Positions 12,117-30,784 of a stretch of 64,000 bases of DNA are shown here, piece by piece. A program made the position numbers and the translations under genes. Below the pieces are notes generated by a model, which was given only the letters and a program-made list of their open reading frames with translations, was not told where the DNA came from and did not search any database. The DNA comes from Nitrospirota bacterium (GTDB lineage: Bacteria; Nitrospirota; UBA9217): contig OY760142.1 of assembly GCA_963663225.1 (NCBI GenBank), forward strand, positions 3,136,001-3,200,000, written 5' to 3'. Every line of letters begins with the position of its first letter. The first letter of the stretch is position 1.

Positions 12117-13076
12117 ATGACAGAGAATGGATTGGTTAAGATTTCCGGAACGGATACGGTTATTCCCAAGGATCAATACGAACTGGTTGTTAGAACAGTC
12201 GCAAAAGGGCTCGACGAAAACGAGCTTGGCTTGTTTTTCTACGAGTGTAAGCGGCGAGGAGTACACCCGCTCGACAGGATGATTTACGCGATCAAGCGCA
12301 AGGACAACTCAGAAGAGGGGGCGGCCGCTCGCGTTACCTTTCAATGTTCCATAGATTACTACCGTGCGGCGGCAGAGGATACCGGCAAATATCTCGCACA
12401 GGAGCCGGTGGTATTTGGCGAACAAATGTCGCTGTCAAAAGCGTGTAAGAGCGGCGCGGGGCATGACGATGTTGTAGTTCCTGAATTTGCAACGGCTACA
12501 GTTGTGCGAAAAAACGAAGAAGATGGCGAAACAATGAAAATAAGCGCTACAGCCTATTTCCGTGAGTATTATCCTGGCGAGAGGATGGGCCATATGTGGC
12601 GCAAAATGCCGTTTGGCCAGCTGGCAAAGTGCGCCGAGGCCCTTGCACTCCGTAAAGCGTTCCCGCGCAAGCTTGGTGGGTTATATGTCAATGAAGAAGT
12701 TGAAAGGCCGACTGATGATATCCCATTTGCAAAAGATACGGTTAAGCCGAAAGAAAAGCCTTTGCCGGCCCCTTCATCCCCTGCCCCGCAGCAGCCTAGA
12801 GAGCCGGGGCAAGACGAAGGAGAAGGAGAAGCGCCACAAAGAACATTCTGGCAGATACCAAATCAGATGGACAGCAAGATAAAGATGGACCTCTACAACG
12901 AGCTTATGAATAGGGCTGGCGGCGATACGGAAATAGCCGAGGGATTGCTTAAAGAAGCCTCTGGATTCAAGGGAAACAATGGGCTGGTCTGTATGTCGTT
13001 TAATGCTCTGGAAAAATGGACAGACTCATGGTGTTCAAGAGCACTTGCAAAACTTCGCGAAACGGGAGGCAGATAA
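12117..13076 (+). CDS. bet: Phage recombination protein Bet (RecT/Redbeta family)
   Basis: ELGLFFYECKRRGVHPLDRMIY, SIDYYRAAA, WRKMPFGQLAKCAEALALRKAFP signature. Confidence 0.9.
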   Translation: MTENGLVKISGTDTVIPKDQYELVVRTVAKGLDENELGLFFYECKRRGVHPLDRMIYAIKRKDNSEEGAAARVTFQCSIDYYRAAAEDTGKYLAQEPVVFGEQMSLSKACKSGAGHDDVVVPEFATATVVRKNEEDGETMKISATAYFREYYPGERMGHMWRKMPFGQLAKCAEALALRKAFPRKLGGLYVNEEVERPTDDIPFAKDTVKPKEKPLPAPSSPAPQQPREPGQDEGEGEAPQRTFWQIPNQMDSKIKMDLYNELMNRAGGDTEIAEGLLKEASGFKGNNGLVCMSFNALEKWTDSWCSRALAKLRETGGR

Positions 13077-18133: not shown

Positions 18134-18661
18134 ATGCCGGTATGCCCTAATTGTGGGGTTGAGTTTGACGAAAATAAAAAGCAAAGCATACCGTACGCAG
18201 AAATCATAGAGGACCTTAACGCGGTATGCAGATTTAAAGAGCGCGGAAAAAAGGGGTTTTCTCATAAATCAAGCTCTAACCAGCGTCTTATTAATGGGCG
18301 GTGGAAAGATGGGTATAGACTCGACGACTTTAAGGCGGTCCATAGAAATATGGCCGCCAAGTGGCTTGACGATCCCAAAATGGAACAGTTTCTACGACCG
18401 GTTACGCTGTACTGTGCCAGTAAGTTTGAGGGATATTTAAGTCTAAGCCTAAACTCTGACAAGAAGGCGGACATATTCACGGCGCTGTGTGATGCCATGG
18501 ATAAGAAAGAAGCTCCGAAAGATGAGATTGCCCGGAAGGTTGGTTTTATGATAGGATGGGACCGGGTAAAAAGTCTGCTGCAGTCCGAGGCCGGGCGCGA
18601 TGCCTTGAAAACTCCTTTTGACCGGGCATATAAAACGGTTATAGCGGAGATGGAAAAATGA
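18134..18661 (+). CDS. Phage replication-associated protein (TIGR02220-like C-terminal domain)
   Basis: EIIEDLN..INGRWKDGYRLDDFKAV..FLRPVTLY.ASKFEGYL; N-terminal CPNC. Confidence 0.75.
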   Translation: MPVCPNCGVEFDENKKQSIPYAEIIEDLNAVCRFKERGKKGFSHKSSSNQRLINGRWKDGYRLDDFKAVHRNMAAKWLDDPKMEQFLRPVTLYCASKFEGYLSLSLNSDKKADIFTALCDAMDKKEAPKDEIARKVGFMIGWDRVKSLLQSEAGRDALKTPFDRAYKTVIAEMEK

Positions 18662-20372: not shown

Positions 20373-20795
20373 TTAAAATCTGAAACCAACTCCAATTTGA
20401 TAGTTTCGATAAACCTGATTTGCTTCAATCCCTATCCATACAGCTTGCCATACCTGCCGCGCCGGGATCTTCACGCCGAGGAATTCAATCTTTTTCGGCA
20501 GCGCGTACGCAATTGCAGCGTGGCCCACAATAGCAAGGGCAAAATAAGTGTTCACCCTGCCCTTGCTTGGATACCGGCCAAGTATAGGGTTTGTTTCTGC
20601 ATAGCAAACATGGCGCGATGGCTCAATTTTTCTGTGGTACTGTGTCGCCCAGGATGTTTGGCCCCAATCAACGACGATCAGCCCAATTGTGACCGCTTCT
20701 CCAATTGTGTCTACTGCGTCCCATTTGTCCGGCCATGCTTCCGCGCTGGCTGCGAGTCCGAGAGTTAATAAAATTGCAAGAGTTATATTTTTCAT
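20373..20795 (-). CDS. Exported/membrane hypothetical protein
   Basis: Signal peptide, ETNPILG motif, C-terminal GVGFRF; RBS lies within the hammerhead core. Confidence 0.7.
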   Translation of the reverse strand: MKNITLAILLTLGLAASAEAWPDKWDAVDTIGEAVTIGLIVVDWGQTSWATQYHRKIEPSRHVCYAETNPILGRYPSKGRVNTYFALAIVGHAAIAYALPKKIEFLGVKIPARQVWQAVWIGIEANQVYRNYQIGVGFRF

Positions 20796-20800
20796 TTTCG

Positions 20801-20857
20801 GGCCTCCTCAGTTGCCGCATGACGACAAGACGGGGTCAGCTGCGCCCCGTTTCGGCC
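20801..20857 (-). ncRNA. Hammerhead ribozyme, type II
   Basis: Minus strand: GGCC-GAAA-CGGGG(cgcagcuga)CCCCG-UC/-UUGUCGU(cau)GCGGCAA-CUGAGGA-GGCC; conserved core and all three stems present; predicted cleavage between 20829 and 20828. Confidence 0.9.
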
Positions 20858-20858
20858 T

Positions 20859-21230
20859 TTAATATTCTTCCGGCAGCATGATCGTAAAACCTTCATATTC
20901 GCTGAATACCAGCCACATTTTTTTTGTAACACCCTTCCCCGGAGATGTTTGATAAATTACCCTGAATTCAACAAGGCGCTTGTCTCCCTTGTCTTTTCTG
21001 AAAGCGTGTGCAGCCATATATAGAGTGTCCCAAAGTCTCCCCTTGTAATCCTGCATACCCCTGAGCGATTCGGGGACGTTAACAAGCGAGTGAACGCCAC
21101 AGGTCAGACAAATAGGAATTTTAAAACCGGCTTCTTTCGCTTCGCTCGTTTCGGATACGTCAATCAGTTGTCCGTCCTCAATAGCCTGTTTTCTGGTATA
21201 GGTGCTTATGACTTCTGAATTTTGAAACAT
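20859..21230 (-). CDS. DUF6573-like phage/plasmid protein
   Basis: YTRKQAIEDGQLIDVS..AGFKIP..QDYKGRLWDTL..TIMLPEEY. Confidence 0.75.
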   Translation of the reverse strand: MFQNSEVISTYTRKQAIEDGQLIDVSETSEAKEAGFKIPICLTCGVHSLVNVPESLRGMQDYKGRLWDTLYMAAHAFRKDKGDKRLVEFRVIYQTSPGKGVTKKMWLVFSEYEGFTIMLPEEY

Positions 21231-21247
21231 ATCTATCCTCCTTTCAG

Positions 21248-21463
21248 TTAAGGAATATAAACACATCCCTCAACGAAAAAATTGGTTACGTCTGATTCCT
21301 GCGCCCGTTGGCTATTCATCCAGCGTACGCTTCCGGGCTCGCAGCGCCGGTGCCGGTATTTGTCTTGCCCGATGTATACCGGCTCACCGGTGATTTTGTG
21401 GCTGCAAACATAGCAGACTTGCAGCGTTCGGCGTTCTTTGGGTTCGTCAAGTTTGCGCCTCAT
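21248..21463 (-). CDS. Hypothetical protein with CxxC..H..C motif
   Basis: In-operon ORF with GGGGG RBS. Confidence 0.55.
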   Translation of the reverse strand: MRRKLDEPKERRTLQVCYVCSHKITGEPVYIGQDKYRHRRCEPGSVRWMNSQRAQESDVTNFFVEGCVYIP

Positions 21464-21690: not shown

Positions 21691-22091
21691 GTCCCTGCCC
21701 TCCTTTGCCGGATTAACTGCTTTATGAGCGCCCCGATGATCGGAGCGCCGAAAAGAAGTTAATACATGGTTTTATCCTCCTTTTCTTCCATTTCTTCATG
21801 ATCTGCGAAAACTTCAAGCATGCCTTGAAGTGCAGAGCATAGGGCCGCCGCTGCATCCTTCAAGATGGCTTCTTTGTTTATCCTCCTGCTTTTTAACATG
21901 GGCTTTTGTCTCCTCTCTTTGAATTGTCGCTTTAATAATCCTGTCTATCTCTGCGATGCGTCCGGGGCTTATCATGGCAGCACCATGCGAAAAACTATAC
22001 TGTTTATCAAGTTGTCGATCTGCTGCGCTATCCAGTACAAAACCCCGCCAATGATGCCGATTAAAATAAAAGCTGTTGAGTGGTTCATGGC

Positions 22092-22289: not shown

Positions 22290-22369
22290 ACTGTCCCCTT
22301 TCTCCTGCCGGATTTAAAAGCACTCTATAAAGCGCCGGGGCTGCATAGTCCGGCGCTCAAACAATGGTT

Positions 22370-22930: not shown

Positions 22931-22953
22931 GTTATTTGTCTCCCTTCTATGGT

Positions 22954-23124
22954 TTACGCTCCGGATTTAACGGATACGGTTAATCTTGCCGGCGGGTTGG
23001 CGCCCAGGGCATACTTCTTGACGTACAGCGTCCCGATCTTCGGTTGTATAGTGTCCTCCTCCTCATAAACGTATGTGCCCTTGGTTTCCTTCTTCAGCTT
23101 GAAAGTCGTCGTAAAGTCTGCCAT
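22954..23124 (-). CDS. Small 56-aa phage protein (below ORF-track cutoff)
   Basis: MADFTTTFKLKKETKGTYVYEE..IGTLYVKKYALG..; GGGGAGG RBS. Confidence 0.6.
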   Translation of the reverse strand: MADFTTTFKLKKETKGTYVYEEEDTIQPKIGTLYVKKYALGANPPARLTVSVKSGA

Positions 23125-23160
23125 GGTGCGCCTCCCCTTTTCTTTGGTCTGTGTTTGTGT

Positions 23161-23528: not shown

Positions 23529-23556
23529 ATTATAATAAGGTATATACCATTGTCAA
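23529..23556 (-). promoter_or_regulatory. Strong sigma70-type promoter of the leftward operon
   Basis: Minus strand TTGACA-16 nt-TATAAT with AT-rich flanks. Confidence 0.7.
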
Positions 23557-28800: not shown

Positions 28801-28995
28801 ATGGAATCAGTCGAGCGCGAATTGCAGGAAATAAAAGCGGCCATTTTATCAATTGGCAATACGGTTACGGAGATAGCCTCTAATCTTGAACGCCATGGAA
28901 TAGGAGCACACAAAAAGGCTAACATCGTAGAAATAAAAGATTGGGCAAAAAAACAGGCGGAGCGTCATGTCAATAAAACCAGTAGGAAAAGATAA
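28801..28995 (+). CDS. Small protein overlapping integrase start (possible excisionase/directionality factor)
   Basis: Position only; no recognisable motif. Confidence 0.35.
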   Translation: MESVERELQEIKAAILSIGNTVTEIASNLERHGIGAHKKANIVEIKDWAKKQAERHVNKTSRKR

Positions 28996-30019
28996 GTGGG
29001 AGCTTGACATAAGCCTGGGCTACGTCGATGGCGCTCAACATAGAGTAAGGCGAATATTTTCAGGAACGCAAGAGAACGCCGTAATTGCTGAGATTGAACT
29101 TACCAAACAACTCGGAAAGCCTTCAGTAGAAAGAAAAAAAATTGAGGACTTTACAGAAGAATATCTTGAATGGGTTGGCAAATACCAGAGCGAAAAAACA
29201 TACCACGATAAAAAGAAAATGCTATTCGGCTATCTATTGCCCTTCTTTGGCAATATGCGGCCAGATTTCATAACAAAGAGCTTACTTGAAGCATACCAAA
29301 CCAGCAGACTAAACGCTCCAATAAAATTTTCGAAGCACGGAAAGCCATTAAAACAATACAAAAGGTCCCGCGCCGTTAATCTTGAAATACTCTGCCTGTC
29401 CTCAATGATTGAATGGGGAAGAGAACACGGATATTGCGTCGATCCTCTCGTAAAAATCAAACCACTACCGTATAAAAAACCGCTTCCAAGTGTATTGTCC
29501 GCTGAGGAAATAAAATCTTTTCTGTCTGAGTGTCCCCCTGTTTATAAAGCCTATCTTTTGGCCCTGTATCATTGCGGCATGAGAAAGAATGAGGCTAAAA
29601 ATTTAAAATGGACAGATGTAGATTTTGAACGCGGTATTATTCATATTATCGGAAAAGGCAACAAAGAGCGTATTGTGGGGTTGACGGATACGCTTAAAGA
29701 ATCTCTGCAGTCGTTACAGAGGGCCGATATTCGTGTTTTCGTTTCGCCGAGGACAAATATGCCGATTGGGGATATAAGAAAGACGATTGAATCGGCAAGA
29801 AAGCGCGCCGGGATCCAGCGGCACATAAATCCTCACCTACTACGGCATACTTTTGCAACTCATTTGCTTGAACTCGATGTTGATTTAAGGACCATTCAGG
29901 ACCTTCTTGGCCACGCCGATGTAAGCACAACCCAAATTTACACCCATGTTTCGATAAACAGGATATTGAGCGCAGCCAAAGCGCTTGATGAAGCGCTAAA
30001 GAAGAAAGGAATAGCATAG
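28967..30019 (+). CDS. int: Phage integrase (tyrosine recombinase)
   Basis: GMRKNE, GKGNKER, HLLRHTFATHLL, LGHADVSTTQIYTH; N-terminal arm-binding-type domain. Confidence 0.93.
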   Translation: MSIKPVGKDKWELDISLGYVDGAQHRVRRIFSGTQENAVIAEIELTKQLGKPSVERKKIEDFTEEYLEWVGKYQSEKTYHDKKKMLFGYLLPFFGNMRPDFITKSLLEAYQTSRLNAPIKFSKHGKPLKQYKRSRAVNLEILCLSSMIEWGREHGYCVDPLVKIKPLPYKKPLPSVLSAEEIKSFLSECPPVYKAYLLALYHCGMRKNEAKNLKWTDVDFERGIIHIIGKGNKERIVGLTDTLKESLQSLQRADIRVFVSPRTNMPIGDIRKTIESARKRAGIQRHINPHLLRHTFATHLLELDVDLRTIQDLLGHADVSTTQIYTHVSINRILSAAKALDEALKKKGIA

Positions 30020-30709: not shown

Positions 30710-30784
30710 TGGAGCCGGCGGTCAGGATTGAACTGACGACCTGCTGATTACGAATCAGCTGCTCTACCACTGAGCTACGCCGGC
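30710..30784 (-). tRNA. tRNA-Thr (anticodon CGT), prophage attachment site
   Basis: GCCGGCGTAGCTCAGTGGTAGAGCAGCTGATT-CGT-AATCAGCAGGTCGTCAGTTCAATCCTGACCGCCGGCTCCA; full cloverleaf with CCA. Confidence 0.97.

Follow-up and report, generated by a model that had tools for sequence, protein, structure and literature searches.

A prophage hammerhead ribozyme whose catalytic core appears to double as the ribosome-binding site of the next gene

Bacteria and phages encode hammerhead ribozymes in their genomes, and what these do there continues to be described as an open question. The best-described hammerheads of this kind are the type II forms of Perreault et al. 2011 (PMC3088659; Rfam family RF02276), which lie between prophage genes and were proposed, in the main text of that paper, to cut long phage transcripts into shorter mRNAs. 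The genes that flank them are not constant, and a majority of these ribozymes can pair loop I with the tail just past stem II over at least 4 base pairs (bp), a contact needed for speed. Hammerheads have also been tied to translation. Engineered switches sequester a Shine-Dalgarno (SD) sequence in a hammerhead or twister helix (PMC5052635, citing Wieland & Hartig 2008), and RNA viruses of fungi and plants depend on cleavage by a hammerhead for their cap-independent translation (PMC13725137, 2026). The subject of this article is a type II hammerhead on the minus strand of a 64,000-nucleotide (nt) stretch of DNA from a Nitrospirota bacterium (lineage UBA9217; assembly GCA_963663225.1, contig OY760142.1, positions 3,136,001 to 3,200,000), which we call the window and number from its first letter. 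The ribozyme belongs to a known class in a known setting. What appears to be new is that the catalytic core itself would serve as the SD sequence of the following gene, its single free letter, N7, being tuned to G.

The whole ribozyme occupies 57 nt (20857-20801) between the UAA of one prophage gene and the AUG of the next. Its invariant core is complete: C3 U4 G5 A6 N7 G8 A9, G12 A13 A14, the pair A15.1-U16.1 and a non-G at position 17. Stem I has 6 bp, stem II 4 bp and stem III 6 bp; I and III are capped by loops, II is open, and G10.1 is paired with C11.1. The minimum-free-energy fold is the hammerhead junction, and both our own descriptor and a covariance-model alignment agree with it. An earlier note on this DNA, made from its letters, had described a complete type II hammerhead filling nearly the whole gap between stop codon and ATG, and had seen that core plus stem II read GAGGAGG 7 nt before the AUG. 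Both descriptions held, every coordinate was right, and so was the placement of the ribozyme in a phage operon of small genes, which proves to be a prophage operon of about 13.

With the type II hammerheads of Perreault et al. the element shares its core, its permutation (I and III capped, II open), its place between small prophage-operon genes of varying identity and, as far as the main text of that paper sets it out, the proposed role of cutting transcripts. It parts company with them in detail. In the RF02276 consensus stem II has 2 bp, loop I measures about 10 nt and the 3' tail for the pseudoknot is conserved; in the subfamily to which our element belongs stem II is a 4-bp GGCC helix, loop I measures 5 nt and no pseudoknot is detectable. 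The engineered switches, as PMC5052635 outlines them, are alike in placing a ribosome-binding site within a ribozyme fold, so that folding and cleavage set its accessibility; in them the SD is paired with an anti-SD that was added within a lengthened stem, and an aptamer makes cleavage ligand-dependent. Here, by contrast, the SD would be the core strand plus two letters of stem II, with neither anti-SD nor aptamer, and the arrangement is natural and recurrent. The viral ribozymes resemble it in that cleavage of a hammerhead in the 5' leader is tied to translation of the following gene. They differ in being eukaryotic systems with type I hammerheads in the untranslated regions of RNA viruses, and in involving no SD pairing. 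The main text of PMC3088659, taken without its supplements, has no mention of Shine-Dalgarno, ribosome binding or translation, and a full-text literature search for natural hammerhead cores that serve as SD sequences, which excluded subscription journals and supplements, brought to light engineered switches only.

Is the motif more than a chance arrangement of letters? Our descriptor, which combines the core motifs with the three helices, was applied to both strands of the 3,255,001-base genome and gave exactly one type II match. In twelve random genomes of equal length, generated by a first-order Markov model, a single loose match turned up in total, and none equally good. We also built a covariance model, R1, from an alignment (A1) of 27 viral-contig copies of one length, the window being excluded. 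R1 scores the window copy at 51.0 bits (E 1.2e-11 within the window) and finds it as the sole match in the genome, with an E-value of 6.3e-10, these E-values being rough since the calibration was short. The stability of the fold does not stand out (z -0.81; among 200 shuffles, 43 are as stable or more so). As the energy is like that of shuffles, stability is no argument for a ribozyme, and it is the comparative evidence that decides.

That evidence comes from a large family. We searched with a pattern in which GGCC, GAAA, GUC, CUGANGA and GGCC were fixed and the remainder was free. With N7 free it occurs in at least 120 stretches of viral contigs, with many copies on some contigs; with N7 set to G it occurs in 21 viral stretches, in 92 from genome contigs (many of these long-span chance matches) and in at least 120 from metagenome contigs. 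The descriptor retained 224 distinct hammerheads across all loci, and R1, run over 100 sources, reported 137 copies at 27.9-80.2 bits. Among 132 distinct sequences, 99.8% of the 2055 alignment cells are standard-paired, against 71.1% in shuffles; two-sided changes are found in 14 of the 16 pairs, and sliding the partner by 1-3 columns brings pairing down to 30-40%. With an alignment fitted to the model, and with stem II and the core fixed by the pattern, the independent covariation signal is that of stems I and III, where 6 of 6 and 5 of 6 pairs, respectively, covary.

The window copy carries the marks of this subfamily outside its helices as well. An unpaired A precedes stem II in 217 of 223 relatives, as it does in the window (20858); position 17 is C in 151 of 152; and 173 of 224 members have a 6-bp stem I closed by a 5-nt loop of the type U-N-A-N-G (125 of the 173 have A as the third loop letter), which the UCAUG of the window fits. 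A stop codon lies 0-4 nt ahead of stem II in 91 of 152 relatives, a closeness that would suit the processing between cistrons that PMC3088659 proposed for hammerheads of prophages. On these comparisons of sequence, we take the element to be a genuine, complete type II hammerhead of a phage-borne subfamily. As a side observation, U hardly ever follows stem II directly (1 of 223 relatives), and this avoidance and the A before stem II may be part of a tertiary contact.

We now turn to the ribosome-binding site. The 3' end of the host 16S rRNA reads CCUCCUUU (...GGAUCACCUCCUUU), so that the anti-SD is canonical. Of 2401 first-ATG open reading frames (ORFs) of the host, 12.1% have GGAGG in the 20 nt before them, compared with 1.1% at a control position, and the spacing of GGAGG to the ATG peaks at 4-9 nt, a range that takes in the 7 nt of the ribozyme site. 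Most of the other operon genes have a purine-rich, SD-like run of their own upstream of the start. The 140-amino-acid (aa) protein gene that follows the ribozyme has no alternative SD within the 5-nt spacer CGAAA, which leaves the core strand as the only candidate. Nor does the start codon itself seem misplaced: six homologues of the 140-aa protein, from related genomes, have a signal peptide of similar length ahead of a conserved W, and since they open alike, the AUG at 20795 is the real start.

An argument for a link between core and SD lies in the one core position that a hammerhead leaves free. In a sample collected with N7 free (152 copies), N7 is C in 84, U in 56, G in 7 and A in 5, the window being among the G cases, and most copies have a separate SD with a start 25-30 nt downstream. 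We called a start adjacent if its codon lies 2-8 nt after stem II, and counted such starts in the 215 relatives with enough downstream sequence, after setting aside nine copies in which it was short. Requiring an ORF of at least 50 aa and no alternative in-frame SD and start, an adjacent start is found in 35 of 67 copies with N7 = G and in 11 of 148 with another N7 (p = 9.3e-13). The association persists when ORFs of 25 aa or more are admitted (53/68 versus 16/149, p = 1.1e-22), when only ATG is counted (27/67 versus 5/148, p = 1.6e-11) and when only viral contigs are considered (6/14 versus 10/138, p = 9.5e-4). In the N7-free scan, where an adjacent ATG occurs in 9 of 144 copies, N7 is G in 3 of these 9 compared with 3 of the 135 others (p = 0.003), and C in none of the 9. 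Kinship between copies is only roughly handled in these counts, by clustering. The 35 adjacent-start cases with N7 = G precede 29 groups of proteins that are mutually dissimilar by blastp, and a layout found before 29 unrelated downstream clusters was not inherited with one gene. The distance from GGAGG to the start is 4-8 nt in 34 of the 35 and 10 nt in the remaining one. Because N7 = G is so much commoner where a start codon follows stem II directly, the overlap of core and SD looks selected and not accidental; our best explanation includes the setting of N7, the only free core position, to G, which would turn GAGG into GGAGG. The window has the features of this class: N7 is G, the AUG comes 5 nt past stem II, the spacer is devoid of an SD, and the tail lacks the motif described next.

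That motif, N7'-UCAG, is a tail directly after stem II that is complementary to core letters C3-N7. It is present in 47 of 223 relatives and at a control position in 5 of 217. It is frequent where N7 is C or U, as at L016:709-761 (+) and L032:3341-3392 (+), each with the next 5-6 nt, and the letter before UCAG covaries with N7 (C-G 32, U-A 13, G-C 1, mismatch 1). With N7 = G it is rare (1 of 68), as it is with an adjacent start (3 of 46, versus 40 of 159; p = 0.007). In 34 of 36 minimum-free-energy folds of intact RNA the tail hairpin is preferred over stem II. This hairpin may be a lock on the core once the cut is made, or else a competitor of the ribozyme.

How might the element in the window work? 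All 57 nt are accounted for by a minimal hammerhead with loops of 9 nt and 5 nt: we found no sensor or ligand-binding domain, and no riboswitch family was matched in the Rfam search. A scan of the minus strand across 20800-20860 for a GC-rich hairpin followed by a U run gave no intrinsic terminator; stem III is followed by UCUUGUCGUC. Since there is no sensor, we lean, with moderate confidence, toward self-cleavage as constitutive processing of the transcript that leaves the 3' product with a ribosome site of its own, and away from a switch worked by a ligand or signal. Starting from the motif, its family, the covarying helices and the tie between N7 = G and an adjacent start, we infer the following course of events in the cell. 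The ribozyme would fold as soon as its last strand is transcribed and cut itself after C20829. The upstream mRNA would then carry the stem III hairpin and a cyclic phosphate at its 3' end, and the downstream mRNA would begin with a 5'-OH and the stem I hairpin, its GAGGAGG 18 nt from the new 5' end and its AUG 7 nt later. The products would be joined only by the 4 bp of stem II, and as their computed association is only -4.5 kcal/mol they should separate. The core strand on the 3' product, now partnerless, would act as the SD, having been ribozyme core first and ribosome-binding site second, and translation would proceed chiefly from the cleaved product. Hairpins, 5'-OH ends and cyclic-phosphate ends slow exonucleases and decay that depends on the 5' end, so the capped ends would be expected to stabilise both RNAs. 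A ribosome stopping at the UAA, 1 nt before the ribozyme, would, given the size of its footprint, cover stem II and half of stem III, and it would transiently unfold a ribozyme that is still uncut.

A stronger version of this proposal, which we hold tentatively and would not back at even odds, is that cleavage gates the ribosome-binding site. The folded core and stem II would keep GAGGAGG out of reach of the 30S subunit until the RNA cuts itself and the 5' fragment departs, so that the downstream block of genes would be translated only from processed RNA. Across phages the cut core strand would then have two fates, serving as an SD where N7 is G and the start adjacent, or being locked by a 3' tail that pairs with CUGAN where N7 is C or U and the SD is found at a greater distance downstream. 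Two of the seven SD letters, G10.1 and G10.2, stand in a Watson-Crick helix. Masking of the other five in intact RNA would be a matter of the three-dimensional core: in hammerhead crystal structures G5, A6, G8 and A9 are engaged in core contacts.

A number of observations weigh against our account, and they are best considered together. Models of secondary structure fail to display the unmasking of the SD: for the intact RNA they leave five of its seven letters formally unpaired (probability 0.79-0.84). When the 3' product is modelled, weak pairing appears between the SD and CU-rich codons downstream, worth 3.6 kcal/mol beyond stem I in a 59-nt model; which codons are the partner depends on the modelled length, and shuffles fold just as well (z 0.08). 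These accessibility models deal with secondary structure and ignore the tertiary structure of the core. No tertiary contact is identifiable, and the loop I/tail pseudoknot by which classic type II hammerheads achieve rapid cleavage finds no support in the subfamily. The N7 counts rest on ORFs called mechanically and on an N7 = G set drawn from targeted scans of three collections, in two of which the counts are lower bounds. R1 found no hammerhead in 17 loci near homologues of either flanking gene, so the junction has no conserved counterpart there. And Rfam is silent: RF02276 does not report the site at its gathering score of 37 bits in the window, nor at E<=10 in a 251-nt search, and its four weak matches in the genome do not include it.

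The silence of Rfam can be accounted for, because RF02276 differs from the subfamily in stem II, loop I and tail. Run over seven phage contigs, it found 14 subfamily copies in four of them, at 26.9-39.3 bits, and only 3 of the 14 pass the cut-off of 37; of three copies with N7 = G that were tried, it reported none. The search with hammerhead models suggested by the earlier note thus came out both ways, the curated model missing the site and R1 recovering it. In other words, the curated type II model under-detects a large phage subfamily. How densely that subfamily can be packed is illustrated by a viral contig (L034), on which at least 12 of its hammerheads lie in about 5 kb, between about 170 and 5160 (11 by Rfam, 12 by R1).

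The alternative that survives best, although we think it unlikely, is that the hammerhead is active and GAGGAGG is an SD, yet folding and cleavage have no measurable effect on translation. The overlap would merely save space in a phage operon that is tightly packed, and ribosomes would open the small junction as readily as any leader. That just two of the seven SD letters are helical, in a helix of 4 bp, speaks for such compaction, as does the A-rich start region, which is predicted to be open in intact and cleaved RNA alike (probability unpaired 0.76-1.0). The adjacent-start layout is also seen with N7 = U, which leaves a plain GAGG, in 6 of 55 copies of the N7-free sample. The enrichment of N7 = G reflects selection on SD strength, which would be expected under compaction too, so it does not discriminate between the two. 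What does count against compaction is the burial of G5, A6, G8 and A9 in the crystal structures: a folded, uncut ribozyme should compete with the 30S subunit.

A relic is improbable. On that reading the motif would be too slow without a tertiary contact, and would persist as a structured spacer and ribosome-binding site or as a pair of RNA-stabilising hairpins. We could identify no such contact, and two other gaps of the operon do hold plain GC-rich hairpins. In a relic, however, the core would be expected to drift, and here every invariant core letter is intact and the consensus is kept outside the helices too, in the A before stem II and the U-N-A-N-G loop.

More improbable still is the switch proposed in the earlier note, in which a pseudoknot between loop I and the 3' tail (UCAU with the AUGA at the start codon) hides both AUG and SD, and competition between ribosome and cleavage sets translation. 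The note was right that type II hammerheads often use such a pseudoknot, which PMC3088659 reports, at 4 bp or more, for the majority of the classic forms; the 4-nt complementarity is literally present in the window. In the subfamily it is at chance level. Among 172 relatives with the same loop type, complementarity between loop I and a 10-nt tail averages 2.76 against 2.73 +/- 0.05 in permuted controls, and comparisons with 15-nt tails, 20-nt tails and the 5' flank of these 172 are likewise flat. Between loop I and the start region of the 35 adjacent-start members it is 3.0 against 2.92 +/- 0.10. A match of at least 4 nt to the 10-nt tail occurs in 22% of members, and the UCAUG loop is shared by just one protein cluster, in which the pairing is lost in two of four tails through AUAA in place of AUGA. 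Within a 5-nt loop, moreover, a helix of 3-4 bp would leave no more than one free letter on either side, and there is no sensor domain. With a subfamily at chance level and a loop of consensus type, the UCAU/AUGA match in the window is what chance gives, and the sequestering of the AUG by a pseudoknot is not supported. Finally, that the whole motif is a functionless chance match to the hammerhead consensus can practically be dismissed: its unremarkable fold energy and the silence of Rfam are outweighed by the genome-wide covariance-model E-value, the failure of 12 random genomes to yield an equal, and an exact fit between stop and start codons of the kind seen in the relatives with a stop near stem II.

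The ribozyme sits in an integrated phage-like region, with a tyrosine integrase (28967-30019) beside a tRNA (30713-30784), a RecT (12117-13076) and a phage C-terminal domain (18134-18661). The operon runs leftward through about 13 small genes down to 19327, and the ribozyme splits it into eight upstream and four downstream. The four encode the 140-aa signal-peptide protein, a 78-aa Cys-rich protein, a DUF6166 protein and a lipoprotein that is weakly like the Sbal_3080 family, with a score below the model cut-off. Coordinates of the ribozyme, its flanking genes and the promoter-like site at the operon head are collected in Table 1.

Table 1. Features of the ribozyme locus, in window coordinates
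Feature	Position	Strand	Basis
Consensus promoter-like site TTGACA-16-TATAAT, 12/12 match, in an AT-rich stretch at the operon head	23529-23556	-	sigma-70 consensus match only
Upstream gene, 135 aa, DUF6573	20859-21266	-	ORF list; Pfam PF20213, E 1.2e-16
Stop codon UAA of upstream gene	20861-20859	-	sequence
Unpaired A directly 5' of stem II	20858	-	sequence; equals first consensus position of Rfam RF02276
Stem II, 5'-proximal strand GGCC (positions 11.4-11.1)	20857-20854	-	sequence, fold, descriptor, covariance model
Core GAAA (G12 A13 A14 + A15.1)	20853-20850	-	sequence, covariance-model alignment
Stem III hairpin: A15.1+CGGGG / 9-nt loop / CCCCG+U16.1	20850-20845 / 20844-20836 / 20835-20830	-	sequence, fold, covariance model
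C17; predicted cut between 20829 and 20828 (2',3'-cyclic phosphate on 20829, 5'-OH on 20828)	20829	-	hammerhead consensus
Stem I: UUGUCG / loop UCAUG / CGGCAA; one G-U pair	20828-20823 / 20822-20818 / 20817-20812	-	sequence, fold, covariance model
Core CUGAGGA (C3 U4 G5 A6 G7 G8 A9), position 7 = G	20811-20805	-	sequence, covariance model
Stem II, 3'-proximal strand GGCC (positions 10.1-10.4)	20804-20801	-	sequence, fold, covariance model
Shine-Dalgarno candidate GAGGAGG (G5 A6 G7 G8 A9 G10.1 G10.2)	20809-20803	-	sequence; AUG 7 nt on
Spacer CGAAA, stem II to start codon	20800-20796	-	sequence
Downstream gene, 140 aa, N-terminal signal peptide; AUG 20795-20793	20373-20795	-	ORF list

Relatives of the two flanking genes are sparse. 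Homologues of the upstream gene were found in 8 of 60 other genomes and of the downstream protein in 6 of 400. In five DUF6573 homologues that we inspected (L006, L008, L009, L010 and L014) the gene is the last, and is followed by a GC-rich, terminator-like hairpin of the AGAGCCCCGGA...UCCGGGGCUCU type; in the window, by contrast, the hammerhead and four more genes come after it. The only relative of the downstream protein on a viral contig (L015, 35% identity) has no hammerhead at its locus by R1, and a blastn search with 20373-21266 against 50,697 phage records gave no match. In a run of a second organism, the contigs cover parts of the window, the ribozyme not among them. A junction without counterpart in relatives fits the remark in PMC3088659 that the flanking genes are inconstant.

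Other gaps in the operon are of some interest in their own right. Those at 21691-21758 and 22290-22369 (minus strand) hold strong GC-rich hairpins, with whole-gap folds of -28.2 and -27.0 kcal/mol, each followed by the same leader, AAUCCGGCA, and an SD. CUGANGA is absent from these two, the operon's other large gaps, which have plain hairpins only; they look like paralogous modules of hairpin plus ribosome site that lack the hammerhead core. A 230-nt gap between listed genes at 22931-23160 (minus strand) contains GGGGAGG and then AUG, and appears to hold a further small reading frame, whose UAA comes just before the SD of the next gene.

All of this concerns an element of about 70 nt, present as a single copy in a complete bacterial genome. 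What it offers to the wider question of phage hammerheads is that the sequence itself ties the ribozyme to translation, the free letter of the core being chosen by the presence of a directly following start codon. The shared core and SD recurs in many uncultured phages and gives their ribozymes a testable job. If cleavage does gate the ribosome-binding site, phage hammerheads would have a defined function, and the engineered SD-sequestering switches would have a natural counterpart.

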